Positions 125 to 28,350 of a stretch of 30,342 nt of DNA are shown one piece after another. How positions within the stretch are numbered: the first letter of the stretch is position 1; the number at the start of each line of letters is the position of its first letter. The position numbers and the translations under genes were made by a program. The stretch is taken from contig MU271205.1 of assembly GCA_021432655.1 (NCBI GenBank), positions 124,001 through 154,342 on the forward strand, in the 5' to 3' direction. This DNA is from Atractiella rhizophila. Taxonomy: Eukaryota. The notes beneath the pieces were generated by a model that was not told the DNA's origin, searched no databases, and saw only the letters and a program-made list of their open reading frames with translations.

Positions 125-620
125 TTACAAGCTTCCTCCGATCAGATCATCGAGCACACAGACGACGGTTGTGACTGGTTTGTCGTTCTCGATGTCCCAG
201 CACCGAGGAGGAGAGCTGGATGCAAAGCAGACAGCTCAGTGTTCCGCCGACGTAGGCGAAAAGATATGCTCACGCGCAATACTGGATCAGATCTGCAAGT
301 CTTTGATCAGCGGAGATCAAGTCCCGAAAGCTAAGGCACTGACCGTCGAGATATGTCCTCATGTCACCCGTACGATATTGTCTTATATTCCCGTCCCACG
401 TAACGTTAAAGGTGAATCCGCTCAAGCAGTTTTGGCAATATCTCGCTGCTGATATCGTATTGGAACTACATGCCCCAGCTGTTACACCGTTACAGTTCTG
501 TGAGCATTGGAGCGCCCCAGCGGTCCCCATCCCTGTATTGAATTGAGGCTGGGGAAGTGAAAGAGCAAAGTCGAAGAAGAAAGCACGAAGCAAGACTTTT
601 GTTACTCGCTTCGACAACAT
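125..620 (-). CDS. Small cysteine-rich, probably secreted protein (~128 aa, 8 Cys, 3 exons)
   Basis: Exons 620-344, 292-274 and 215-125, with GT-AG introns at 293-343 and 216-273. Spliced product MLSKRVTKVLLRAFFFDFALSLPQPQ...CSQNC...C...YCQNC...YLDDLIQYCASPPRCWDIENDKPVTTVVCVLDDLIGGSL*. The N-terminus is signal-peptide-like but imperfect (contains an Asp). Confidence 0.7.
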
Positions 621-1621: not shown

Positions 1622-2257
1622 GTTCAAAGGTTTGGGGAATGATGAGAAGTAAGGTCTAGAAACGGTTGTATTATAGAGAATTATACAGTGAAGAAACTTG
1701 ATTAGCTCACCAGGCGGCTAAGCTCAGATGCGCATGTTAACTCTTTAGAGGAGAAAATCACCGCAGTTACTCCAGGCCGTTCGCTGCTCAATGCCGTTGG
1801 TTGCTAGCTGCAGGGTTTTCCTTCTAATAATTCCAGGTTGGACATGAGAATTGGGCATTGTGAACAGCAACAATGTTGTTGACGTGCGGGTGTTCTACGT
1901 TCACACAATGCTTTGTCAAACATGAAGGCGACACAAATGACGGTTGCGCATGAAAGAATCTTAAGAATGCGGATGAAACAAAATGTTCGGTATCAAAATC
2001 CAAGATGCACTTCGCCCAACATTGAAAGCTTGATCACTTGATTACTTGATTGGGTAGTATCGGCTGGCCTTCAAAGAGCGAGGCTTTAGGGCAAGTATGA
2101 GCGTCCAACCTCCTTGTTCGCTGCGGGGCTGACACCATGTCTCAGGAGTTGTGATAAAGACCGAACTCACTTCTTCTTTGACTAGATTTGACTACAACTT
2201 CTTCTACCTTTTAAACGGTTTTACTTCCATCTGCACCGCACAAAGCGCTCAAGCAGG
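1622..2257 (+). repeat. Duplicated upstream/promoter region of the F-box gene (paralog at ~8107-8737)
   Basis: Collinear similarity from aatgatgagaagtaaggt to caaagcgctcaagcagga, with small indels. Confidence 0.9.
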
Positions 2258-3649
2258 ATGTCGCTCCCAGTAGATACCCTTGTCGAGATTTTCAAACTTG
2301 CCCGTCCCACTCCTCCTGACCTTTTCAGTTTCTCCAACCCGCCCATGCCCGTCAAGCGAGACCACAATTATCCTCGTCCGGCAGATTCCATAGGCTCGGA
2401 ACGATACCCCTACAAATACCAGATCAAATATCAACTATATCAGCGGGACCTCTTCCGCTTCGCCCAAGTGGCAAAGAATTGGAGGAGCGCGGTTTCGGAG
2501 GTATTGAGGAGTGGCTACCTGACTGCGAGGATCAAAAGCAAGAAGGGAGCGGAGGGTCTAATTGAAGTTTTGAGTGACAGCGAGAAGAAAATCCCGGGGT
2601 GGAAGTTTCAAAGACTCGTGTTTGATTACGATGCTTCCTTGAAAGGATCAAGAGGACAGAGCACATACATGCGCCAAACCTTCGGAGCGACTCGAACAGA
2701 AGCAGAGAAGTGGGGCCTACCTACGTGGAAGAATACTGTGGAACTTCTTCGTCTTCCGTCGTGCAACGAGAATCTTCAATTCCTCTCCTTCATCGATCCC
2801 TGGTTCAAGAGAGATTGGCAAAATGATGATTTTGTTCCATATCCCGAAGCGGCCATCAAGCCAGAAGGAACATTTCAGACCCTTCCACAAGAAATGTCAA
2901 CGATTCAAAATGGACTGCCCCTTGCTTTTCCAGTTTTGACCGAATTTGCCTTTCAAGAAGCATTCAACTTTCCCAAGCCCCTTCTCTTCTGCCTCCTCTC
3001 AAAGATGCCTCAGCTCAAGATTCTCGCTCTCGGCGATATATTTGATTCTTGGGATACTCAAGGAGGCTATCCTCCAGAACCGACCTACCAACTTCACACC
3101 CTCAAGATGACTGCTGGAAGTCACTACCAACGCATGTTGTTAGAAGACGATTATAGATTCATCTTGAAGTCCTCCGTTGGCGCCAATTCCATCCAAACCT
3201 TCTCCCTTGTAGCCGGTGGCTATGGTGAAGATGAGAAACCTCTTTTCCCTGACGATATGTACGCTCCCCTCGCGTCCAACCTCAGGAGCGCAACATTCAT
3301 CGACATGCCGACAAAAGCGAGCGCCATCATTTCCCGTGCTCCAAAGTTGAAGGAACTTGTCAGCGTCGATAAACATAACCGCAGTACCCTATTTGACCGA
3401 ATGAAAGCCTTCCCTGAGGATGCGTCAATCGAGAGGATTTGGGAACGTTATAATCAATTTAGGGATCAAGCAACGGTGTCCGAGCTCGCGAAGTGTCTGG
3501 AAATGGACAGCAAGGGCAGCTTCAAACATCTCAAGTTGATCAGAATTTCTGTGGAGCGATGGTACGACACGTCTTCGAAGGAACAGCTTCAACCTTTCGT
3601 GCAGGTATGCAAGAGGTTGGGTGTCCAGATAGAGTGGGACACTACATGA
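2258..3649 (+). CDS. Intronless F-box-like / LRR-like protein, 463 aa (array copy 1, intact)
   Basis: Uninterrupted ORF. Split F-box pattern LPVDTLVEIFKLA...DLFRFAQVAKNWRSAVSEVL, followed by LxxLxL-type segments (PVLTEFAF, PQLKILAL, QLHTLKM, NLRSATF, PKLKELV, KHLKLIRI). The domain call is from motif recognition only. Confidence 0.75.
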   Translation: MSLPVDTLVEIFKLARPTPPDLFSFSNPPMPVKRDHNYPRPADSIGSERYPYKYQIKYQLYQRDLFRFAQVAKNWRSAVSEVLRSGYLTARIKSKKGAEGLIEVLSDSEKKIPGWKFQRLVFDYDASLKGSRGQSTYMRQTFGATRTEAEKWGLPTWKNTVELLRLPSCNENLQFLSFIDPWFKRDWQNDDFVPYPEAAIKPEGTFQTLPQEMSTIQNGLPLAFPVLTEFAFQEAFNFPKPLLFCLLSKMPQLKILALGDIFDSWDTQGGYPPEPTYQLHTLKMTAGSHYQRMLLEDDYRFILKSSVGANSIQTFSLVAGGYGEDEKPLFPDDMYAPLASNLRSATFIDMPTKASAIISRAPKLKELVSVDKHNRSTLFDRMKAFPEDASIERIWERYNQFRDQATVSELAKCLEMDSKGSFKHLKLIRISVERWYDTSSKEQLQPFVQVCKRLGVQIEWDTT

Positions 3650-7845: not shown

Positions 7846-8737
7846 GTGTTGAGCGTGTTTCTTTCTTGTCCCGGGAGAACACCAGAACGTGACTACACAA
7901 AACACAACTTTATTCATTCACACAGCTTGGAATGGAATGGGATGGAGAATGGGAACAACCCGACAGAGACGCAAGACAGTGGAAGGGCGTTAGATTTGGG
8001 GGAATCAGGTATTTGAAGTAACAGTACACCGCTAGAACGAGTCTCAAAGCCAGTGGTGAGGTAATTAGCTGCAAACGGTGAGCAGTTCCGCTTCATTTCC
8101 TCATTTGATCAAATGTTTGGGAAATGATGAGAAGTAAGGTCGAGAAACGGTTGTGTCGTAGAGAAGTATGCAGTAAAGAAACTTCATTAGAAGTTCACTA
8201 GGTTGGCCAAGCTCAGACGCATGTTAGCGCATGTTAACTCTTGAGAGGAGTCACCACACTTATTACAGGCCATTCGCTGTTCAATACAGTTGTTTGCTAG
8301 CTGCAGGGGTTCTCGTTCTAATAATCCAGGTTGGACATGAGAATTGGCATGGAACAGCAACATTGATGCTGTCGTGCACGTGTTCTACCTTCACAGAATG
8401 CTTTGTTAAATAATGTAGGCGACATAGATGATGGTTGCGCAATGGCATCTTAATCTCAAGAACGCAGATGAAACGAAATGTTTGATATCAAATTCCAAGA
8501 TGCACTTTGTCCAGCATTGAAACCTAGATTACGTGATTAGTTAGTATCGGCTGGGCTTCAAAAAGCGAGGCTTTAGGGCATGTATGAGCGTCTAACCAGT
8601 TCGCTGCGGGGCTCTCAGGAGTTGTGATAAAGACCGAACTCACTTCTTCTTTGACTTGATCTGACTACAACCTCCTCCAGCTTTTAAACGGTTAAACTTC
8701 CGTCTGCCACCGCACAAAGCGCTCAAGCAGGAGCAGG

Positions 8738-9330
8738 ATGTCGCTCCCAGTGGATACCCTTGTCGAAATTTTCAAACTTGCCCGTCCCACTCCTCCTGAC
8801 CTTTTCAGTTTCTCCAACCCGCCCAATTCTACGCCAGTCGAGCAACATCGCAGTTATCCTCGTCCAGCAGATTCCACAGGCTCGGAACGATACCCCTACA
8901 AATACCAAATCAAATATCAACTATATCAGCGGGACCTCTTCCGCTTTGCTCAAGTGGCCAAGAATTGGAGAAACGCAGTCTCGGAAGTGTTGAGGACCGG
9001 CTACCTGACTGCGAGGATCAAAAGCAAGAAGGGAGCAGAGACTCTGATTGAGGTTCTGAGCGACAGCGAGAAGAAAATCCTGGGGTGGAAGTTTCAAAGA
9101 CTGGTGTTCGACTATGATGCTTCCTTGAAAGGCTGCTCAAGAGGACAGAGCACGTACGGGTACGAAACTTTCGGAGCGACTCGAACAGAAGCGGAGAAGT
9201 GGGGCTTACCTACGTGGAAGAATACTGTGGAACTTCTTCGTCTTCCGGCGTGCAACGAGAATCTTCAATTCCTCTCCTTCGTCGATCCCTGGTTCCGGGA
9301 ATATGATGATTTTGTTCCGTATCCTGAAGC
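8738..9330 (+). CDS. F-box-like gene copy 3, 5' part; the 3' part is present mirror-reversed at 10760->9958
   Basis: Paralog of the ORF at 2258 up to PYPEA. Reading 10760 backwards without complementing continues in frame as PIKPEGKFHLLPQEMSTIQNGLPLAFPVL...IEWDILQ*. About 464 aa, allowing for one extra C at 10083-10084. Confidence 0.85.
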
Positions 9331-10760
9331 GTGGTGACTCCCTAGAAACAAGCGGGGCTATAGTAGTGACGACCTCGGAGGAAACATAGGTTGGCACGGT
9401 TGTTGTCTACGGTTGTGAAAGGTCGGATATGGATGGGGTCTACGATTGTAAATGGATTCGGGCCTAGAAACCTTCTTGAACCTGCTAAAATGACTAGGAC
9501 CCTTATACTGCCGTCTGACCTTACGTTACAAACTCCCGTACTTATCTCTCTACCCAATACATTTACTTAGCGTCTGAACTATTGATGCTGTAACTTCGAA
9601 CGAAGCAAAACCACAAAACTCCAGAAACAACACTAATTACAAGAGAAAGAGGAAAAAGAACTTCGAGTTCACCAATGCAGCCGTACAGAGTTTTCGACAC
9701 TATGGAGAGGAGTTAGCAAAAGTCAACAGCCACGACACTCGTCTAACATAGTATACCTTGTACGTTCAGAGTAAGACAGGTGAAAGCAGGTGATTATGGT
9801 TAGTGAAGCAATGGTGCGTTCTTCTGGGCCGCTGTTCTTTAAGCCTTGGGTTTCCGCGATCAATCTTTTAACCTACTGAAAAACACTCCTTGTGTAACCT
9901 ACGACCGGCTATGTCAGTTGCGTCGTCTTATCACCTTTACCTTGTGTGGAAGTAACGAGTAACGTTATATAGGGTGAGATAGAGCTATCGGCTAGAGACC
10001 GTGTGGAGGTGTTTTCCAACTTCGACAAGGAAGCGTAGGCAGAGTCTGCTAACGTGGTGTCTTTAAGACTAGTTGAACTCCACCGAATTTCGATGGGAGC
10101 GATAGGTAAAGCTCTGCGAAGCGCTCGACCCTGTGGCAAGGAACTAGGGATATAAGTAACATAGCCAGGGTTTAGTAGAGTTAGCTGCGTAGGGGTCCTT
10201 TCCGCAAGTAAGCCAGTTTATTCCATCACACCGATACTAATAGCTGCGACTGTTCAAGGAAGTTGAAACCTCGTACCCCTTACTACCGCAAACGGAAGCA
10301 GCTGTACAGCTACTTGTAACGCCAGGACTCCAACCTCCGCTCCCCTCGTATGTGTAGTAGTCCCTTTTCTCCAAAGAGCAGACGTGGTATCGGCACTCGA
10401 TGCTCCATCTTTCAAACCTAGCTTAATCGCGCTTCCCTCCTCAAGTTCTACTTAGATATTAGCAGAAGATTATTGTGCGCAGCCATCACTGAAGGTCGCC
10501 AGTAGAACTCCCATACTTCAACCATCCATCCAAGGCCTCCTATAGGAGGAACTCATAGGGTTCTTCGTTTACATAGCGGTTCTCGCTCTTAGAACTCAAC
10601 TCCGTAGAAACTCTCCTCCGTCTTCTCTTCCCCGAACCCTTTCAACTTACGGAGAACCTTCCGTTTAAGCCAGTTTTGACCTTTCCGTTCCCCGTCAGGT
10701 AAAACTTATCAGCTGTAAAGAACGCCTTCATTTACTTTAAAAGGAAGACCGAACTAACCG
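9331..10760. other. 1430-bp mirror-reversed (non-complemented) segment; probable assembly artefact
   Basis: The plain reverse (gccaatcaagccagaaggaa...) aligns collinearly with ~2851-4266. I recognised no homology to the array in the forward or reverse-complement reading. Confidence 0.95.
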
Positions 10761-13900: not shown

Positions 13901-14548
13901 TTGCGACACCAGCCTTTAGGTGCGAACTTTGTCGTTGCTAATATATCCGCATTCAGATCCTTGCTTGTCATTCATGCACAGCTCGGATTCGTATCGCTCA
14001 TCTCATTCCAGCAGCCATTTGAAGATGTGCCACTGTGGTCATCTCGCGGCTGGATCCGAAAGTAATATCAAAGAACGAAAACTGCTACTAATATGCCAAG
14101 CAGCAGAAGAGTGAAACAGCTTCCGAGTGGTGCGCAACTCAGGCTCAGGAGTGAACGGTTTCACAATATGCAACTCCCAGTTGAACACCAGATCAAGAAG
14201 AAACTCACAACTAGCCGGTTTCCTGTTCCTCGTCTTCTTTTTCGCAGGCGGAGTATCCTCCTTCATATCCCTCCGCATTCCTTGATTTCCAGTTTGGTTC
14301 ATATCGAGTCCTCCAATAACGGGCATATTAGTATCGAAGATCCTCTGTGTGTTGCCTTGAGAGCCAGTGGATGTTTCTGCTGGAACCTGCCGAAGAGAAA
14401 CTGGGTATGGGGCAAAGATTGGATTGTTGGAAAGCGACCACTGGGGTTGTGGTGGATTCACATTTGTTTGGAGAGGGGCGGGGAGTGCCGAGGTTTGATG
14501 GTCCCCTGGATCATAAAGCATGGTAGGATTATATGCCGACGACGCCAT
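10955..14548 (-). CDS. Zn(II)2Cys6 (Gal4-type) transcription factor with fungal-specific TF domain; multi-exon, 3' end in the gap and mirrored segment
   Basis: ATG at 14548. Exons 14548-14209, 13727-13719, 13674-13643, 13587-13520 and 13461-... splice to RNRKPASCAPCRKKKLRCDRLVPCSACQQRGEAHLCSW. Followed by a coiled coil (ELRAQVDRLQALV) and the middle-homology motif AVQLGLNRDP...EAEDRRRIFWTL. Apparent 1-nt frameshift at the T-run 11124-11128. Confidence 0.9.
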
Positions 14549-15758
14549 TGAGTGTCGACTTGGTGTCCAGAGCGTACAACCCACGTAGAACCGAGTCGAG
14601 TTGAATGCTACAGACAAGGTCAGATTGGTAACGCCGGACGATGCTCAGCAATCAGAAGCACGAGACGCTTGTCGAGATCTTACAATTCACCTTCCAGCGA
14701 CTTATCCGGCCAATGTTATTCCTTATCCGAGCTGCGTAGAAGCGGCCAGAATGGTCGAAGGAGGAGATGTTCGTCGTTGAAATTGATCGAAGTCACGTGT
14801 CTCAGACACCCACGAATTTATTTGACGCTGCGCCACCATCTGGAGGCTCATCTGGGTTCGCCAACTAGATATGAAGATCATATCCTGCCTTCTGGAACGC
14901 CCATTTTCTTGCAGAGGCTCGAAGCTGAGATGCCCATCGAATTTGCGAGGTATTCCGTGGATTCCAGACTGTCAACCCGAGAAAAGGTCGAGTTCCAGGT
15001 CGAGTTCAAGCGAGATGTGCGAGAGAACATTTGGAATCCGAAATGGCTGGCATATAAAAGTCTACGAACAGCCGAACTTCGCCCTCGATCTCATGCCGAC
15101 TGGTGTTTCGTATCCCCAGATCGATGAGAAAGCCATACGGAACTCCGGTCACCAATAGAAGTTAAAAGAACCTCAAACTTCCAAGTGAGGCCCTCTCCTC
15201 ACGATTTTACTGCGAACTTGCAAGAGAGTGGGCGAACGGTCAGGGTAACTGTTTGATGATCGGTGCAGAACGACGGCGACTCGAAGGAGTCTAAATCTGG
15301 AGGATTTTCTCGATTTTCCTGCTTGAACTTCAACGTCAAAGTTTTCCATCGGGACATCTGATTTTGAGCATGACATGGAGCTGCATTTGAATATGAGATG
15401 AAAGCCCGTCGACCCCTGTCTTTATTGTCTCTTACGTGCTTCTGGTCTTTTAGTGTAGGGTATTGTCACAAAGCCGACCAAGGTGTCGAGATGAGATCGG
15501 ACGGGACAGGGGTATGAGAAACGCAGGGGATCACAGTTAAAGCCATGGAGGCTTGAAAGTTCTGGGGATCCTTGCTAGGCCATTGTTTCCACTGATTTTG
15601 CGACGGCGACAGGTTTTCACATTCTCTAACTGACGAGGACATAAATACAAGACATTGCAATGCAGAGCTTAAAACCAATACACATGATCAGTAGCACAAG
15701 TACCATAGGCAATAAATTGAGCTTTACACGCAAGAAGCAAACTTGAAGTGAGCTCACT

Positions 15759-17626
15759 TTAGACATCCATACCACGAATTAAGTGGTTCCACTCCTCCTG
15801 TACATCTCCCCGTCCATATCCTTCACGACGACGTTGGTTTTCCAACCACCCGTCCCGTGTCGCATAAAGTTCATCTTCCCTGGAGGGGTTACTGGGCGGT
15901 CCAGCCACCATAGGCTGCACGATAACCTTCGAAGGAGTTGGTACATTAGGTTCCTTTGTTGTCCACCGGCAAGTCGTACTGCTCCGAGCGCAAGGACGGC
16001 AAATGAGGCAATTTGGTGTACATTCTATGTTCAAGCGACTGTTGCGACATTGTTAGTAATGTTAGTTTAATTACCAGAAGAAAAAGATACCACGTACCGA
16101 CAACGGTCACACTTGTCTTCTGCCTCTTGCAGTAACTTTGCTTGTGCCGGTCCATCAATAGCATTGTCCATAGAGACAGTCGAATAACGGTTGAACATTT
16201 CTTTTGTAGTCGTTTTGCAGAGGGCACCATCGTTGGCACAAGAAAGGCACTCGTGTCCGCCTCTAGGATTGTTCATGCAGGGTCTGTTTAAACGGCTATC
16301 CAGTTCCCTACCTCAGGAAAGTGACTCGAGGGATGAGCAGAGATACGAACCGACAACGGTCGCAGACCTCTCTGATCCCTCCATCGCTCAGATCTGCCTC
16401 AAACGACTCGTTCGTTCCGTCGCGGAGTTGCTGAACCGAATGAGTCTCCGATATAGGGCTAGGTGGTGCCTTCGATGCCCATTGGCATACAGCACCCTCA
16501 CGTGCGCAACGCAGACAAGTCCCCCCACTCGATGAATTGGCGATGCATTCCCGGTTCAAACGCCTGGCTCAGTCAGTCCACAAGTTATACTTGTAATCAA
16601 GAGGAAGAACAAACCGACAACGGTTACAGCCTTCTCCTGCTGCCTCTTTCGCCCGCAAGTTGACTCGCGTTAGCCCTTGGGTTTCGTCCTCAGTAGTTGG
16701 CCGTACGTGAGAGAATGCATTTGAGGCCATTCCTTTGGAAGGCCACTTGCAGATGGCAGAGTCGATGCCGCAAGAGACACAAGTTGTGCTCCAATAATAG
16801 CGCATGCACGATCGATTCAAGCGACTGTGGATCCCAGATGCTCAGGGAATGAAAAAACGGGAGGAAGAACGAACCGACAACGAGAACAGACCTCTCTCGT
16901 ATCCTTTTCGTGCACCTCGAGCGACACCGGTCCCTCAGACTTAGTTTCAAACGAGATTCTTGATGTATTAGCTGCATTCGTTGCCGTTTCTATCCATGCC
17001 CACCTGCAATTGACGCGATCGTTGGAACAAGAAACACAACTGTTGTGCCATGGAGTGCGCATGCAAGATCGATTTAAACGACTACCCAATGAAAGATCTC
17101 TATAAGTTATCCTTTCTATCTTTATAGAAGGAGAAGGAATACGAACCGACATCGAACACAAGTCTCTATCATCCAGCCCTTCTGCGCCACCGTTTCTGTC
17201 GATGGCCACTTGCAACTTTCGCCGGCTCTGGAACATCGCATGCAGGCTCCTTCACCATCCTTACTAAATTTGAACCTTCGGCAATTTTTGTTCAAACGAC
17301 TGTGGTCACCCGTCAGTATCAAAAGGGCAAGAAAAAGGCTGAACGAACCGACATCGATCACATTTCGTGCTATGAGAATCAGGCAAACGCGCGCGTCTGT
17401 GTAACTCTGTCAAAATGGTATTATTCTGATCGAAGGGAGGAACAAACGGCTCCTTGCAGACTGCCTGTCGGTCTGAACCGAGTTGCTTGGATTCTTGCAT
17501 GTTGCGGTTATTTGTGAGTGGAGCCTGAGAGAAACGCTGTCGTTTGCCCAGGACTGACGGAATTCCAGCCATAAACATCAGGGCTGAGGCAGCAGCACTC
17601 TCCAGTACTGAAACATGATCAGTCAT
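15759..17626 (-). CDS. Protein with six tandem Zn(II)2Cys6 clusters (~512 aa, 7 exons)
   Basis: Exons 17626-17349, 17299-17147, 17081-16875, 16824-16615, 16563-16351, 16295-16098 and 16038-15759 total 1539 nt in one open frame. Six C-x2-C-x6-C-x6/12-C-x2-C-x6-C units. All six introns are GT-AG, 49-65 nt and phase 2. The start codon choice is less certain. Confidence 0.88.
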
Positions 17627-18705
17627 CCACAGTCCTGCCAGGAAGAACAATTGCCTAGCGATTCTGGATTATCCCCGGTCGAATCATGCTCTGGCTCCGT
17701 CACATATCTATTGTAAAAATAAGTGCGACGTCAATAACACCAAACCACTTACATCTCTTGATTTGAATGGCTCTACGAGTTAAATTAGGAGCCTTCAATT
17801 CTGAAGTAGTACAACATACCATAGGTATGGTTGGCAGGAAAGGTATAGTTAGGGTTTTGTTTATCCTGCATCCAGAAATCAACACGCTGTAAATACGTGC
17901 ATGCGGAGGAACGAACGCATTCATGACAGCGAGACTGTCCAATCTCCAGCAATGTCCACTGTAGCTACCTAATCCTCCTGGTTCAACAGGCACAGATTCG
18001 CAGCTTATTGCTTTATCACTCACGCTGTGACTTAAGCTGGGAGCTAGATTGTGCCGTCACATCCCCTATTCCTGCATATAGTGAAAGGAACTGGCTCACA
18101 AGAGGACGTCACAGCATTCCTCATAACAGTACCAACTGCTTGTTTTTGACCGGGATTTGCGCTGATATTTCCACTTCAATTGCCTCTTGCCCCCGTCATA
18201 CAGGTGAATGAAGGACTTCTGGAAAGGGAACCTCCTTAAGTGCTGGTCCTGGATGGTCGTTCGATTTGAACAAGGGAACAACAAAAACAAAGTTTACAGC
18301 TTTCAATAGAACCAAAATAAGGGATTCTATGGGAAGATCCGCCGCCCATCTTGCCGCAAGAGCCCAAAACCTTGCTTATTACAGCTCATCGTTTATATTT
18401 ACTATTTGCTACAATAGTGAAAAAGGAGAGACAAACATACTTGCCGGAGCTTTTTCAAGAAAACAAAAGTTGTGACCCAAATTGTGGTGAGATCGCAAAT
18501 GCTGCGGAAGTACAGCAAACAACCAAAGGCGGATCCGAGGACAAGGTAGAATTGTTTAGGCAAAGTATCAGAGGACTTCATTAGCTAGTACTAATGAGTG
18601 GTAAAATTACATATTGAGTATCAATATGACAGCAATGACAAGTGCGTACAAAACATGAACTGAGTGGCAATAGTGAGTTCCAATCCACCGTTCTCTTCTG
18701 ATCGA

Positions 18706-21430
18706 TCATTCTTCTTCCATGATATCCAACTTTTCTTGAACTCGTGTTGGATCAGCATGCTTCACGGGTTCGGCTTCATGCAGCTCTGCAATCTCGATAT
18801 CGTCTTTTGCGGCGTTCAGCTTGAAATGGACCGCATCCCCATTTCTTATGGTTCCTTTCAAAAGTGCCATAGCAAGCGGTTGCCGAATCTGTTCACATAC
18901 ATCAATTTACGCCTCAGTTCACGATGTAAGGGGAGCAGAAGAAGGGAACAAACCTTTCTACCCACAAGTCGATTTAAAGCTCTTGCTCCGTACACAACAT
19001 CGTACCCCTTATCCGCCAGCCACATCTTCACATCCTCCCCACAAACCAGCGTCATATGCCTCTCTTCCAAGCTCTTCTGCACATCTGACAATCTCAGGTC
19101 AACAATGTCCAGGATTGCCTGCTTCGACAATTTATTGAAGACTATCTGGTCGTCAAGCCTGTTGAGAAGCTCTGGTGGATAACTCGCAGCGACGAAATCG
19201 AGGACTGCTTGCTTTGAAGCAGGTGAGACGCTCCCATCTGCATTAGTGGAGCTGGCGGACTTGAGGATGTCAGAGCCGAGGTTGGAGGTAAGGATGATAA
19301 TTGTGTTTTTGAAGTCGATCTTCCGACCCTGTGAATCTTGGAGTAGCCCTTCGTCGAGAATTTGTAGGAGAATGTTCGCTACGTCCTATGTGAGCATTCT
19401 GGCATTGAGAAACATCCAAAAAACCAAGAAATAAGGAAAGAAGGGCGTACTTTATGTGCCTTCTCGAACTCATCAAACAACACTACGCTATATGGTCTTC
19501 TCCTTACTTGCTCAGTAAGCTGACCTGATTCCTCATATCCCACATATCCCGGTGCGGCACCAATGAGTCTGGACACATTGAACCGCTCTCCATATTCGGA
19601 CATGTTGATGGTTATGAGAGCCTTCTCGTCATCAAAAAGGAACTGTGCAAGTCTTTTCGCAAGCTCCGTCTTTCCCACGCCCGTCGGTCCAAGAAAGAGT
19701 AAACTCGCCAAAGGTCTGCGCGAGGACTGAAGACCCGTGCGAGACATTCTTATCGCATCCGAAACTACTTTTACTGCTTCATCTTGCCCGACAACTGAAG
19801 AACCCAGCACCCGCTCCATGTCCAGCAATCGATCCCTCTCCCCTCGAAAGAGATTCGTGACTGGAACACCAGTCTGTTTGCTAACGACTCTCGCGACGTC
19901 CTTTGGCATAACCCTATCGCTGAGCATGAGGACCCCATCCTTCTCTCCCTTCAGCACCTCGTCCACATCTTCTTCCTCCCCTTCTGCAACGTCCTCCGGC
20001 AATTGCTTCTCCAACCCCGGAATCACTCCGTATCTCAACTCTGAAGCACGGAGGAAGTTACCCTGCCGTTCCATCTCCTCCAGCTCAAACTTGGCCTTCT
20101 CCAGCTCCTTTCTCTTCGCTCTTACGTGCTCTACTCTCTTTCTCTCCTCCTGCCACCTCCTTTCTACGTCCCCTTTTCGCAGCTCCAGATCTTCGATTTC
20201 TTCTTTCAGTTTCTCCTTCCTGGCAACGGAGAAACTATCTGTGTCCTTCTGTAAGGAAGTCAACTCAATCTGTTTCTCAAGAAGGCTACGCGTGAGGGAT
20301 TGAAGAATAGGAGGAGGAGACTCCAGAGCTATACGAAGAGAGGAGGCGGCCTCATCGATCAGATCTATGGCCTTGTCTGGCAAATATCGATCTGTGATAT
20401 ATCGGTGTGAATACGCAGCTGCAGAGACGAGGGCTGAATCGGAGATGGACACGCCATGGTGTTGCTCGTATTTAGTTTTCAAGCCTCGGAGCATGGTGAT
20501 CGTTTCTGCACGCTCGCTGTATTAGCCAAGGCGAATGAGTAGGATAGAAGAAAAGATGAACCTGCTACACCTGGTTCCTGTATTTGGATAGCTTGAAATC
20601 TTCTCGCCAATGCTACATCCTTCTCTATTGTTTTCCGATACTCATCCAAACTAAACAGACCTAACTCAACCTCCAAATCAACTGCGAGTTCGAGAATACT
20701 CACGTAGTCGCACCGGCCAGCTGCAAACCTCTAGCGAGAGCAGGCTTCAACAGATTCCCACCGTCGAGACTACCTTCCGCTTTGCCCAAGTTCAAGAGTG
20801 TATGAAGTTCATCAATGAAGATGATCACCTTCCCCAGCTCGTCTTGTATGTCATTTAGAAGCGCTTTAAAGCGTTCTTCGAACGATCCACGGACGCCGGT
20901 GCCTGAGATGAGGGAGGCGAGGTCCAAAGAGAGTACCCGCTTATCTTGCAGCGAAACTGGAACTTCTCGACGCAGTATTCGTTGTGCTAATCCCTCGATG
21001 ATAGCCGTCTTTCCAACGCCAGCGGGGCCAATGAGGACTGTCCAACACAAAAGAATTAACACTCTGTCTTCAAGGGAATGGCATGGTTAAGTAGCATCAC
21101 TCTGAATCAAACATTCGTTCAAGCCGTTCAAGTTTCAGGCATGAGAGATAAAGTTATGCTGTTTGGACTGGGGAAACTTTCAGGTGTCTCTGCACCTCGT
21201 GCTGTCACAGTCCACAGTCATCGATGACGAAAGAGAAAAAATGCAATGGTAATTGCGCATCCCTTCTCTTGAGCGTGAGCGTTCTAATCTTGGTAGCGAG
21301 GAAGTTCATACGCTCGATGCTGCTTAGGATTGCGAGAACTGAACGCACCTGGATTATTTTTCGTCCGCCGACTCAAAACTTGTAGAAACCTCAAGATTTC
21401 TTCTCTTGAGCCGAGAACCTTCTTGCTGAG
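18706..21430 (-). CDS. HSP78: ClpB/Hsp104-family AAA+ disaggregase, Hsp78-like; start unresolved
   Basis: NBD1 motifs [26 protein letters not shown] and ALARRF; coiled-coil middle domain; NBD2 motifs [23 protein letters not shown] and [11 protein letters not shown]; stop at 18706-18708. No Clp N-domain is visible, hence the Hsp78-like call. Confidence 0.85.
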
Positions 21431-24007: not shown

Positions 24008-27000
24008 TTAAAGCGTTTTGGGAAGGGCGTATTTCTCGATACCGAGAATTTTGTCTCCGACGCGGAAGTCTTCAAAACCATCGAAGATGACACCACACTC
24101 TGTGTTCTTTTTCGCCTCCTCCACTTCCTTCTTAATAAACTTCATGCTCTCCAAGTTTCCTGCAAAACAATCAGTCAGTCGTTCGTAATGCAAAGATGGG
24201 CGCAAATTCTGACCTTCCCATATTGTCTCAGAGCCACGCACGATCCTCACCGACTTTTCCTTGTAGAAAGTGCCGTTGATAACGCGACATCCCGCAACGT
24301 TCACGTAAATTTTCTTCTTCGTGTTAAATTTGAAGATTTGCAGGATTTCTGCTTCAGACACAATCTTGGTCCCGAAAGTATCGGGGAGGAGGTCTAAAAC
24401 GCCTTGACGAACAATGTCGATGAGTCGGTAGATGACAGTATCAGTATGGATCATCACTGGACGAGCCGCCGCATTATTCAGGTCAACAACTGCCTTAGGG
24501 ACGGAAACGTTAAAGCCGACAATCATTCCTGTGAGACATTGTTAGTTCTACCGTGGTCTCGTACAAGAAAGAAGACTGACCACCAGCGGTATGGGCAAGC
24601 GCAAAATCGCTTTCAGTTACATTACCAGCAGCAGCTTCAATGATCTTGACCCTGGCTTGATCATTGCCAATATTCTCCAAAGCTCCCTGAACAGCTTCGA
24701 CGCTGCCCATAAAGTCTCCCTTGATAACAAGCACAAGTTCCTTCGTCTTCGCTCGTTCTTCTTCTTCCTCTTTGTTCATTTCTTCCATCCTTCTCTTCGC
24801 CTCCTTCTGATTCTCAGCTTTCCACCATTCCCGCTTCAAATCTTCGACCACTTCTTGCTTCCGGCTCTCTTGCTTCCGCTTCTCCTCAATGACTTCCAGA
24901 TCTTTGAGAGCCTGAGCTCTTTCCGCTCGTCGCTCGCGATTCTTCAGTGCCTTGTGGATCGCAGACAAATCTTGATGCTCGATCACTTCGTCACCCGCAG
25001 CTGGGAGATCTTTCCATCCAGTGATCTCGGCAGCTTCGCCAGGGAGCAGAGACGTGACCTTCCGTCCTGTACTGAGGGTCATTTCTCGAACCCTTCCGTA
25101 CGTGCTTCCAGCAATTAGGTGGTTAGCAAACTTAAGAGTCCCACGGGTGTTGAGTATTGTCGCGATCACCCTAGAGTAAGTATGTCAGATAATTCTTTCA
25201 CATAAACACGTCATTGACATACCCTCGTTTGGGATCCTTCTTCGCTTCCAGCACCCAACCTTGGCATCTCACTCCATCTCTTTCCGCCTTTACCTCCTTG
25301 AGCTCAGCAATTGTCGCGATGGTCTCCACCAGTTCCTTGAGACCCTGGCCAGTGACTGCAGATACTTCGACGCAGGGAATGTCACCGCCAAACTCCTCCA
25401 ACTTCAATCCCTCCCCCATGATTTGATTTTTGACGTCTTCAACCATCGACTCGGCTTTATCGACCTTCGTGATGGCTACAACAACTCCCAATCCTTCTCC
25501 CTGTCTTTCCTTCTTTAGAAGTCCAATGACTTCCTCAGTTTGAGGCATCACTCCATCATCAGCGGCCACAACGAGGACGACAACATCTGTCACGGTAGCA
25601 CCGCGTGCACGCATTGACGAGAAAGCTTCATGTCCGGGAGTATCCAGAAAAGTGATCTTGTCATAGGTCTCTCCCGCGGTTGCATCGATGGGAGGCACTT
25701 CTATCGATGGATCCAACTCTTTAGCTCTCAATGCCGAATTATGTCGAATGGCTGAAAGCGACACAGAGAAAGCTCCAATATGCTGGGTTATCCCTCCTGC
25801 CTCCCCTTTAGCCACACGAGCATTTCTCAACGCGTCAAGGAGTGAAGTTTTGCCGTGATCTACGTGACCCATAATCGTCACAATAGGAGGACGGGGCTGG
25901 AGGACGGAAGGATCGCTACATGGGGGATCGGGATAGATGTCGAAAGAAGCTTCCTCGTCGATTACTGGCTCGTATCCTAGTTCCATGGCAATCAAGCTGG
26001 AATCGTCCGCCGTCAGAACTCGATCAGCTCTGAGATCCGGGATTCCCATCCTGTCGAGCTTGTACAGCAGAGTCTTAAAGCGCATATTCACCAATCTCGC
26101 AAACCGCTCCACGGTGATGGTGGTGGGAATCTCAAGCGTTTTATAGTTCGTTTTCTTCTCCACTTTTTCCTCCTTCTTCTTCGCCTTTTTCTCCTTCCTC
26201 TTACGGTCTACTTCATCGTACAGCTCTCGACCGCCATACCCCTCACTCATCGCTCGATTCTCTTGCGACCGTGACACATATACCTTCTTTTTCTTCGCTC
26301 CAGCTTCCCTCTCCTTTTCTGTCCCCTTTCTGCCATCTCGATCCTTCACACGCCTCTGCAAACCTCCCATATCTTCCTCTTCCTCTAAGAGGTCGATTGA
26401 AGGTATAGCAGAGTCCGCATCCGATCCCTCAACTGTCGGGGTAAGAGCTGCCTCCGCCGAAGTAGACGCCGTACCAACGACTTCCTCTTGCCGTTTCGGG
26501 TGCGAACGATCCTGTCTTCTAGCCACTTGGTCCTGCGACCACCTTGAGTCATCCCTTCTGCGATTTCTAATATCATCTCGGAGGGGATCTGTTCGATTGC
26601 CACTCAATGACGCAAGACTCGTCCTACGGCTCTGCGAAGACGAATCAAACGTCCTCGACAGCATTGCTCTCCTGTCAGATTCCGCATCCCTCCTAGATGA
26701 AAACAGAGGACGTTTCGAGAGATCTCTAGACTGCCCATCACTGTCGGTACGTTGATAAGGACTCTGGGTTCTTCGTGCGTAGTGTTCTTCACGAGACTGA
26801 ACGTGGCGGCCATTACCAGCTTCCCTGTTAAATAACGTACCACGCCCCGCCCCACCTACACCTCCGTTTCCTTGGGATGCACCCCATCTAGGCTTAACCT
26901 CAACATTGTCGCTTCCCAAATCTCGTCGAGGAGACCGAGCCCACGACGCCGACTGGTCCTGTCGACTAAAGGTAGGTTTGGATGGGACGGCCTCGCCCGG

Positions 27001-27333
27001 CGTTCCCCAGTTTGCAGCTCCCTGAGGTTTCGACGCCTTACCCCAACCGTTGGGTTTGGCCTTATCAGTTGCTCCCCAGCTCGATGACGAAGAAGAAGTC
27101 GAGCTTCCCCATCCACCACTGTGGGGCTTCATTCCGCCGCCAACTTCGGAGCGATTGCCCCAAGAAGAGGCATTGGTTTGACGAGGGAAGGTGGGACGAG
27201 AAGAGGAGTATTCGTTGGAAGAGGAAGCGGCAGAGGACGAGCAGCAGATTGTACCATTAAGAGAGCGGGAGAGGTGCAGAGTCGGAGATGCTGAGGAGGC
27301 ATGCTGGGAAGTAGAGGCTAAGAGGCGACGCAT
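24008..27333 (-). CDS. IFM1: Mitochondrial translation initiation factor IF-2
   Basis: Exons 27333-25223, 25170-24581, 24528-24214 and 24159-24008. G-domain motifs [43 protein letters not shown] and TKVD; C-terminal ECG motif; presequence-like start MRRLLASTS. Confidence 0.95.
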
Positions 27334-28350
27334 TTTCTAGTGGCCAACTGGATATCGAGACAAATCCTACAGGCAAATATGAGATCATGAGAGTCGGGAT
27401 GGGGATGTAACAGCAGGTAGGCAAATAGAAACGTCTGTATATGAATACATCAACTACAGAAACGAAAGTACCATCGTAGCGCCGAAAATGAAAGCAAGAG
27501 GTATACCCGACTGACAAAGTTTTCAAAAATTCTTCATGCCTTCCTCAGGCGACAGTGATCCTGATCAATACATCACAAGGTGAGACGACAGCCTCCCTCC
27601 TTCATTCTACAAGGCTCTCATGTTCAGCTCCGAAGTGGCGTAAAATCTCACAAGGCACGAGAAGTTGTTTGAACTTTTTTGAAGCAGTAGCAACCTGTCG
27701 CTGCAACCTAGACGTAGCAAGTCGCTACATATTCGTATGACTCCGTGGCCGTATGCCGCAATACTCACAGTAAGTACAAGTTCAACAACCTGAAATTTAC
27801 AAGTCTATTTCTTGCTGTTCAAGCTCAAACGGATCAACGTCACAGATTCCTCGTTTTCACTTGCAGTAAGACTCCGGAAGTGGAAGGGAAGATCAAATAA
27901 AGTATAAGTTGAACACATATCCTTATCATCACAAGAAAGCCAAAGCCTTTCATCTGTCATTCAACGCAAAGATAATGTAACCCTATCATAGGTTATCTTC
28001 ATTTGAGAATAAAGAGCAACGAAACTTATAAGTCCCTCAAATGAACACGTTCTCCAACCTCCGTTGCTGGTATTGGATGGAAGAGGACTCACCGAGCAAG
28101 AGTAAGAACAGCTATCACCCTTTTAACTGAGTCTGAGTGATACACCCCTCCTCAACAATGTCCACCTCAATAGTCAACTAGTCGCCTGCAATCCTGACCC
28201 GAGGTGTGGTCGAAACTTGACCAAAAAAAGAGGTCAGCTTCCGCAATGTGCGAAACAGCCGCCCGGAGGGAGGTTGCCCACTTCAGACCATCACAGATTT
28301 CTCCTGGTTGGTAGTTTTCAAAAGCTTTAATACTGAAAGGTAGAGGCACA

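Follow-up and report, generated by a model that had tools for sequence, protein, structure and literature searches.

A divergent Zn2Cys6-type protein of Atractiella rhizophila with six putative zinc-cluster modules encoded by an array of symmetric exons

Introduction

Gal4-type zinc-cluster proteins make up the largest family of fungal transcription factors. The available sections of two papers describe these factors as single-cluster proteins that mostly act as homodimers, with Schizosaccharomyces pombe Pho7 and Aspergillus AlcR as exceptions that bind as monomers and do so without a coiled coil (PMC5559640, PMC6265462). According to the same sections Gal4 reads CGG through Lys18 and the equivalent residue of Pho7, Asn299, forms a hydrogen bond with a guanine of the CGG triplet (PMC5559640, PMC6265462). 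This contact residue, presumably four positions after the second cysteine (C2+4), is a lysine in Gal4, Ppr1, Hap1, Leu3 and AlcR, a histidine in Put3 and an asparagine in Pho7 (PMC6265462). The gene described here lies on the minus strand, from 17626 to 15759, of a 30,342-nucleotide (nt) stretch of Atractiella rhizophila (GenBank assembly GCA_021432655.1, contig MU271205.1, positions 124,001 to 154,342 of the forward strand), referred to below as the window, and it is very probably a real, spliced protein-coding gene that encodes six modules. These are called divergent Zn2Cys6-type modules here, on account of their cysteine spacing and of structural matches that are weak yet exclusive to this fold, obtained with a model of moderate confidence. 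They are most aptly seen as a divergent form of the Gal4-type cluster that is restricted to one lineage and set in an unusual six-fold array built from symmetric exons.

The classical architecture of a single N-terminal cluster followed by a coiled coil is not that of the Atractiella protein, which contains six clusters instead of one, has no coiled coil or middle-homology region that could be found and scores only half of the Pfam cut-off. Polydactyl C2H2 arrays consist of tandem small zinc modules that read a few base pairs each and are joined by short conserved linkers. The likeness to these arrays is one of architecture only, namely tandem modules in one chain and apparent growth by duplication of a unit, whereas the fold and the metal site are different and the Atractiella linkers are variable in sequence and 17-40 amino acids (aa) long. 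Like Pho7 and AlcR, the protein has no dimerisation helix and its modules would bind as monomers, and it shares with Pho7 an asparagine at what is presumably the position of Gal4 Lys18, as far as the available sections describe it (PMC5559640, PMC6265462). Pho7 differs in that it combines one cluster with flanking segments and has a 14-bp footprint, whereas the Atractiella protein has six clusters separated by unconserved linkers.

Dichomitus squalens Bhr1, also from a basidiomycete, likewise combines more than one Zn2Cys6 domain in a single chain, at a distance from the N-terminus; it was reported in 2026 as a septin-like NTPase with two PF00172 domains, and in the available part of that report the authors call the C-terminal placement rare (PMC13532241). 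Its two clusters pass the Pfam threshold and accompany an NTPase fold, whereas the six Atractiella clusters are all sub-threshold and stand without any other domain. Database domain-architecture tables appear to list some multi-Zn_clus proteins. A search of the literature, including the available text of a review of fungal transcription factors (PMC5415576), found no protein with at least three Zn2Cys6 clusters. One candidate precedent for a multi-cluster protein (PMC4192604) was rejected, as its 'two Zn2Cys6' are two genes and not two domains.

Gene structure and public annotation

The open reading frames (ORFs) of the locus form a staircase on the minus strand, in which each short frame opens with RLNxxC...C..C......C and closes with C.RCR, junk codons and a stop. 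A scripted splice model paired six donors (TGTCG|GT) with six acceptors (AG|NCGNTTRAA), and removal of the six introns joins seven exons into an open frame of 512 codons. Within this frame the motif C-x2-C-x6-C-x5-12-C-x2-C-x6-8-C is matched six times, at aa 89-122, 140-169, 209-238, 279-309, 350-380 and 416-443. The introns are 49, 65, 50, 51, 55 and 59 nt long in order, all six run from GT to AG, several contain a branch site of the CTGAC or CTAAC kind close to their 3' end, and each interrupts its cluster at the same position, CxxCR | RLN, in phase 2. An earlier first-pass annotation of the window, made from the letters alone, had proposed this gene with its strand, six introns and six clusters, and had noted that every domain is cut by an intron; the spliced frame reproduces all six cluster sequences letter for letter, the proposed coordinates 15759..17626 run exactly from its stop codon to its ATG, and all six clusters are indeed split at the one point of the motif.

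The pattern is unlike that of shuffled DNA. The half motif RLNxxC...CxxC...C is exon-encoded six times in the window, each time in the zinc-cluster gene and nowhere else in the 30 kb, and it is absent from all of 200 mononucleotide shuffles. A looser four-cysteine motif is also found six times, compared to 0.27 times on average and never more than 2 in 200 such shuffles. The donors read GTTCGT in four of the introns and GTTTGT in one, while fungal donors are usually of the GTAAGT or GTACGT type. The exon letters that flank each of the six junctions are nearly identical, which may go back to the way the units were duplicated or may reflect the demands of splicing.

The public model of the gene, BT69DRAFT_1276903 (P0001), is a hypothetical protein of A. 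rhizophila that comprises 196 aa and only clusters 1-2, and it ends there because it reads through intron 3. A search with exon 3 returned this one protein at 100% identity, and a search of public proteins with exon 5, longer proteins included, gave no match among 49 candidates. The completed cluster 3 and clusters 4-6 are absent from the protein collection searched, and the protein, which had been called hidden, is so with respect to its full array, not to clusters 1-2, which are annotated in BT69DRAFT_1276903.

Transcript evidence was taken from the contigs of four public runs (X1 to X4), which were compared with positions 15700-17700. X1 is a root metatranscriptome with RNA on record, X2 and X3 are presumed to be RNA and the kind of X4 is not on record; X1 to X3 name three studies and X4 names none. 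The features of the locus are as follows.

15759..17626, minus strand: coding span from the ATG at 17626 of the first-pass annotation to the stop at 15761-15759; 512 aa as modelled, probably about 478 aa as supported by transcripts
17608..17654, minus strand: 5' intron, GC..AG, with the ATG at 17626 inside it; joint 17607|17655 in one X4 contig (side 46)
17349..17626, minus strand: exon 1, non-repeat N-terminal region, basic patch GKRQR and the first CxRCR of cluster 1
17397..17447, minus strand: in-frame intron of 51 nt inside exon 1, GT..AG; spliced out in the public model (17 aa absent)
17300..17348, minus strand: intron 1, 49 nt, GT..AG, splits cluster 1; script splice and junction of the public model
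17147..17299, minus strand: exon 2, 153 nt; remainder of cluster 1, linker, start of cluster 2
17082..17146, minus strand: intron 2, 65 nt, within cluster 2; spliced out in contigs of X1, X3 and X4
16875..17081, minus strand: exon 3, 207 nt; remainder of cluster 2, linker, start of cluster 3; 100% identical to BT69DRAFT_1276903
16825..16874, minus strand: intron 3, 50 nt, within cluster 3; spliced out in contigs of X1 and X4; also retained
16615..16824, minus strand: exon 4, 210 nt; remainder of cluster 3, linker, start of cluster 4
16564..16614, minus strand: intron 4, 51 nt, splits cluster 4; in-frame TGA if retained; joint in X2 and X4 (cut +1)
16351..16563, minus strand: exon 5, 213 nt; remainder of cluster 4, linker, start of cluster 5
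16296..16350, minus strand: intron 5, 55 nt, within cluster 5; spliced out in contigs of X1 and X4
16098..16295, minus strand: exon 6, 198 nt; remainder of cluster 5, linker, start of cluster 6
16039..16097, minus strand: intron 6, 59 nt, within cluster 6; spliced out in contigs of X1, X2 and X4
15759..16038, minus strand: exon 7, remainder of cluster 6 (with a seventh cysteine), 69-aa tail and stop; covered by X2 and X4 contigs

Transcripts, splicing and constraint

Exact joints are present in run contigs at five of the six introns (16039-16097, 16296-16350, 16564-16614, 16825-16874 and 17082-17146), and because they read CT..AC on the plus strand the minus strand is the coding strand. Intron 1 lies outside contig coverage in all four runs, with the bins 17308-17441 at depth 0, and is supported by the same junction in BT69DRAFT_1276903 and by a stop that would follow 13 codons into the intron if it were retained. 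The check proposed with the original prediction, spliced transcripts at all six introns, therefore succeeded for five of them, and the sixth rests on the junction of the public model. No exon-skipping joints were seen among the run contig joints at the locus.

The run contigs also differ from the window at 56 positions, of which 40 are listed, 39 in coding sequence and one in intron 3; contigs from different runs are not independent samples. Synonymous changes make up 25 of the 39 coding differences in this list and non-synonymous changes the other 14, whereas a synonymous share of 0.23-0.28 would be expected (P from 3.6e-8 to 2.3e-6). Five of the listed differences fall within clusters, four of them synonymous (two in cysteine codons) and one a change of Ser to Gly, whereas the remaining 13 listed amino-acid changes are all located in linkers or the N-terminus, and no listed difference removes a cysteine. 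Overall, this bias in the aligned sequences indicates that the coding frame is under selection.

The retention of intron 3 suggests a different account of the locus, in which most transcripts keep intron 3, the two-cluster protein is the working product and exons 4-7 are left over from an old duplication and are untranslated or in decay. The public model stops inside intron 3, and an unspliced X4 contig across the intron (16796-16904) has a depth figure of 67.6 compared to 43 in the spliced contigs, although by the tool's own note contig depths are unsuited to ranking isoforms. Because the retaining contig is the deeper one, a truncated two-cluster product may be common. As the sole working product it is nevertheless improbable, considering that spliced contigs exist for intron 3 in X1 and X4 and for each of introns 4-6 in as many as three runs, that clusters 4-6 keep all 18 of their ligand cysteines in a frame that remains open to 15759, and that exons 4-7 alone show 19 synonymous changes among 30 listed differences (P<=4.9e-5). 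X4 contains both the spliced and the retained form of intron 3, and retention may be regulated or may simply have misled annotation.

The 5' end of the six-module gene appears to differ from the 512-codon model. The GC..AG intron at 17608-17654 deletes the ATG at 17626, and the start is therefore probably the Met at 17578 or 17572. An X4 contig covers 17448-17607, and its loose end at 17448 fits 17367-17396 at 27 of 30 letters (by eye), beyond the in-frame intron of exon 1. The main product is probably about 478 aa long rather than 512, with the six clusters unaffected. The X4 leader extends to about 17781 and includes the GC..AG intron, a rare type; once spliced, it contains (by eye) three very short upstream ORFs ahead of Met 17578, two of which are an ATG directly followed by a stop while the third has ten sense codons and ends at an exon border. 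At the opposite end a 2072-nt X4 contig with exons 4-7 continues for about 1.1 kb beyond the stop (approximately 14589-15758 of the window), which is either a long 3' untranslated region or an overlap with a neighbouring transcript, and two ORFs in this extension, 14039-14644 (minus strand) and 14552-15127 (plus strand), gave no Pfam match.

Anatomy and origin of the array

The modules follow the consensus C-x-R-C-R-R-L-N-x-x-C ... C-x-x-C-x6-C-x-W, and clusters 3-6 are 54-71% identical to clusters 1-2 over 24 fixed positions. All six carry an asparagine at C2+4. The protein contains 38 cysteines, 36 of which are cluster ligands, with one extra cysteine in the loop of module 6 and one in the N-terminal region. 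The linkers contain no cysteine, are 64-70% polar and only weakly conserved, and are probably disordered. The clusters have a net charge of +2 to +6, compared to -4 to +1 for the five inter-cluster linkers. The 69-aa C-terminal tail is at first proline-rich and then acidic and aromatic, and an NLS-like (nuclear localisation signal) patch, SVLGKR(K/Q)R, is common to the six-cluster protein and a second Atractiella protein, BT69DRAFT_1095914.

The five internal exons (153, 207, 210, 213 and 198 nt) are all multiples of three and are bounded on both sides by phase-2 introns, and each encodes the back of one cluster, a linker and the front of the next. Because exons of this length and phase meet at one point of the motif, the array appears to have grown by tandem duplication of a single symmetric exon-plus-intron unit, to judge from the gene structure. 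The same symmetry means that a complete hybrid cluster would be restored whenever an internal exon is skipped or duplicated. If this is true, the array could be lengthened or shortened by the duplication, loss or skipping of exons.

Relatives

A HMMER search with P0001 of 1.84 billion representative proteins recovered three proteins at E<=1e-3, P0001 itself, P0002 and P0003. P0002 was rejected as a relative, being a 1321-aa low-complexity repeat protein, matched in nine stretches, that lacks the cysteine motif. P0003 is BT69DRAFT_1095914, a 446-aa protein of the same species that was also named by a profile search, and this search recovered only the two Atractiella proteins among 8000 candidates scored. 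Bhr1 was not among the matches of either search. BT69DRAFT_1095914 has two clear CxxCRR(L/F)N modules near its C-terminus, a very basic stretch ahead of these clusters, the SVLGKRKR patch at an internal position (about residue 160) and one or two more Cys6 motifs towards its N-terminus. The first of its motifs lacks one cysteine, and the N-terminal part of this gene model, too, may be wrong at an intron.

A metagenome scan with P0001 peptides gave 36 pattern matches, none of which was confirmed. A DNA signature of the donor and acceptor sequences was found at four metagenomic loci, and these were discarded as chance matches because none of the four contains the half-cluster motif. Within the collections searched, the family appears to be confined to Atractiella.

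Relation to the Zn2Cys6 fold

All six modules have the Zn2Cys6 spacing. The tests of family and fold covered clusters 1-2 as whole domains, by way of the public protein BT69DRAFT_1276903. Zn_clus (PF00172) is the sole Pfam family listed for both BT69DRAFT_1276903 and its paralogue BT69DRAFT_1095914. The AlphaFold2 model of BT69DRAFT_1276903, which was built on a thin alignment of seven rows, has a mean predicted local distance difference test (pLDDT) score of 48.8 and reaches 62-72 over both clusters, and in it a short helix begins at each CxxC (helices 55-60, 78-83, 106-110 and 125-129). When the model was compared with 350,542 PDB chains by Foldseek no match reached E<=1e-3, but the first eight ranks were taken by Gal4, Pho7 twice, Put3 twice, Gal4, Ppr1 and Hap1 (E 0.5-2), and Zn2Cys6 domains account for 19 of the 34 listed rows. 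In a VIA-align comparison with 48,161 representatives nine chains reached Z>=2, all nine of them Zn2Cys6 DNA-binding domains with Z values of only 2.2-3.4: Leu3 (3.4), Gal4 (3.3) and Pho7 (3.1), then Lac9, Hap1, AlcR, Ppr1, Put3 and Gal4, and these matches cover both of the modelled clusters. The ten nearest structure clusters to the ESM Atlas model of the same protein all carry Zn_clus (template modelling score 0.34-0.47), whereas a search of this atlas by features gave best scores of 0.77-0.78, below the level that the tool calls a lead.

The likeness to Gal4-type domains extends to the cysteine spacing, the basic character of the modules, the predicted short helix at each CxxC and the top matches of both structural searches (Gal4, Leu3, Pho7, Lac9, Hap1, AlcR, Ppr1 and Put3). 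The Pho7 chain 6e33 superimposes with a root mean square deviation of 2.2 over 37 columns at 27% identity, the chain 6o19 scores a Z of 3.1, and the VIA-align register places residues 51..98 on 289..328 of Pho7; beyond the motif no homology to Pho7 was detected by sequence searches of the PDB. The modules differ from the usual Gal4-type domain in an invariant RRLN where the segment is usually rich in lysine. Altogether a Zn2Cys6 fold that binds zinc is likely, as judged from the cysteine pattern and the predicted structure. Since the scores are sub-threshold and the prediction could be led by the cysteines, the label used here is 'divergent Zn2Cys6-type' and not that of a Pfam-level family member.

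The first-pass annotation had seen neither a coiled coil nor a fungal transcription-factor domain, and both observations agree with the present results. By a crude test the Pro/Gly-free stretches outside the clusters reach at most 24 aa, which makes a classical coiled coil unlikely, and a long helix is absent from the AlphaFold2 model of the 196-aa public protein. Pfam searches with the seven separate exon translations gave no match to any family at E<=10 (0 of 7), as is to be expected because each domain is split, and the fungal transcription-factor families PF04082 and PF11951 were not matched at E<=10 by the seven exon translations, BT69DRAFT_1276903 or BT69DRAFT_1095914. The further expectation that PF00172 would match the spliced protein up to six times fared less well, given that even the two-cluster public protein scores only 10.4 bits compared to a gathering cut-off of 21. 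Modules below the cut-off, together with a public model truncated at an intron, mean that domain-based censuses of fungal transcription factors would miss this protein.

The predicted fold also bears on whether the modules could instead be disulfide-bonded Cys6 units of a secreted, effector-like repeat protein, with a Gal4-like spacing that arose by convergence. A. rhizophila is a plant-root fungus and a root metatranscriptome is among the runs that carry the gene, the protein is cysteine-rich, repeated and lineage-specific, and by inspection there is a moderately hydrophobic stretch at the start of the 512-aa model. However, the X4 transcript form removes the ATG that supplies this stretch, the homologous SVLGKRKR patch is internal in the paralogue, all six modules have the Zn2Cys6 spacing and the predicted fold matches Zn2Cys6 domains only, all of which renders secretion a very improbable explanation.

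Proposed mode of DNA reading

The proposed mechanism for the zinc-cluster array is as follows. Each module would bind two zinc ions through its six cysteines, and the invariant CxRCRRLN helix of each would face the major groove of DNA, so that every module is an independent monomeric reader. The invariant asparagine would contact bases as Gal4 Lys18 and Pho7 Asn299 do; besides the VIA-align range, its C2+4 position is presumably the equivalent one by the cysteine numbering of Gal4. One chain could contact up to six short G-containing sites by means of its flexible linkers and without a dimerising coiled coil, and the basic GKRQR patch (KRKR in the paralogue) could serve nuclear import.

Single-chain DNA reading by the array is plausible by analogy with Pho7 and AlcR. 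The explanation as a whole, a six-module zinc-cluster protein with an array that arose by duplication and modules that read DNA as monomers, may be right or wrong with about equal likelihood, and nucleic-acid reading as the function of the array is put forward tentatively, as slightly less than an even prospect. Its most specific form, a 'polydactyl' Gal4-type protein whose six monomeric modules on one chain would recognise a long or clustered composite target, is rather unlikely. If true, it would be a mode of DNA reading undescribed for the Gal4-type family. A six-module gene without a dimerisation element also offers a direct test of whether the zinc-cluster fold is used in arrays in the way of C2H2 fingers, and such use would bear on the evolution of DNA-reading domains and on the design of modular binders.

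A number of results weigh against this explanation, besides the possible prevalence of the truncated product discussed above. The PF00172 match of BT69DRAFT_1276903 has an E value of 0.73 at its 10.4 bits, and BT69DRAFT_1095914 scores 9.2 bits compared to the same cut-off of 21. Neither phmmer with P0001 nor the profile search found a Zn2Cys6 chain among PDB sequences at E<=10, and only chance rows were returned. The matches of the predicted fold are weak (Foldseek E>=0.5, Z 2.2-3.4), were obtained with a low-pLDDT model and are perhaps led by the cysteine pattern, and the AlphaFold model of the paralogue (mean pLDDT 35.9) is unusable. Clusters 3-6 were judged by their likeness to clusters 1-2 and were scanned only as split exons. 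No activation, middle-homology or dimerisation domain was found, and the lysines that we take to be typical of the C2-C3 segment are replaced in the modules.

Some of these points are also consistent with zinc clusters that do not read DNA, the array being a protein- or RNA-binding scaffold or a zinc buffer or store, with the RRLN face on another partner. This alternative gains from the sub-threshold similarity to Zn_clus, from the replacement of what are presumably the typical DNA-contacting lysines and from the lack of a recognisable transcription-factor effector domain; moreover, the 36 ligand cysteines of a chain of about 480 aa would suffice for about 12 zinc ions, and the family is tiny and lineage-restricted, with two real members among the 1.84 billion representatives. 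It is opposed by the net basic charge of all six clusters, by the NLS-like patch and by the fact that the sole structural neighbours are DNA-binding domains, and Pho7 shows that an asparagine is compatible with base contact, as described in the available sections of its structural report (PMC6265462). A role other than DNA reading is on balance fairly unlikely.

Neighbouring features of the window

Two housekeeping genes are recognisable in the same window, a fragment of a ClpB/Hsp104-type AAA+ protein at 19379-20521 on the minus strand (AAA_2, AAA_lid_9) and a mitochondrial-type IF-2 at 24510-27336, also on the minus strand (GTP_EFTU, IF-2, IF2_N), neither of which has an evident link to the zinc-cluster gene. 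Two ORFs on the plus strand, 2192-3649 and 8696-9337, are F-box-like but sub-threshold (17.6 and 19.1 bits compared to a cut-off of 24.3); they match the same positions of the profile and may be paralogous neighbours.

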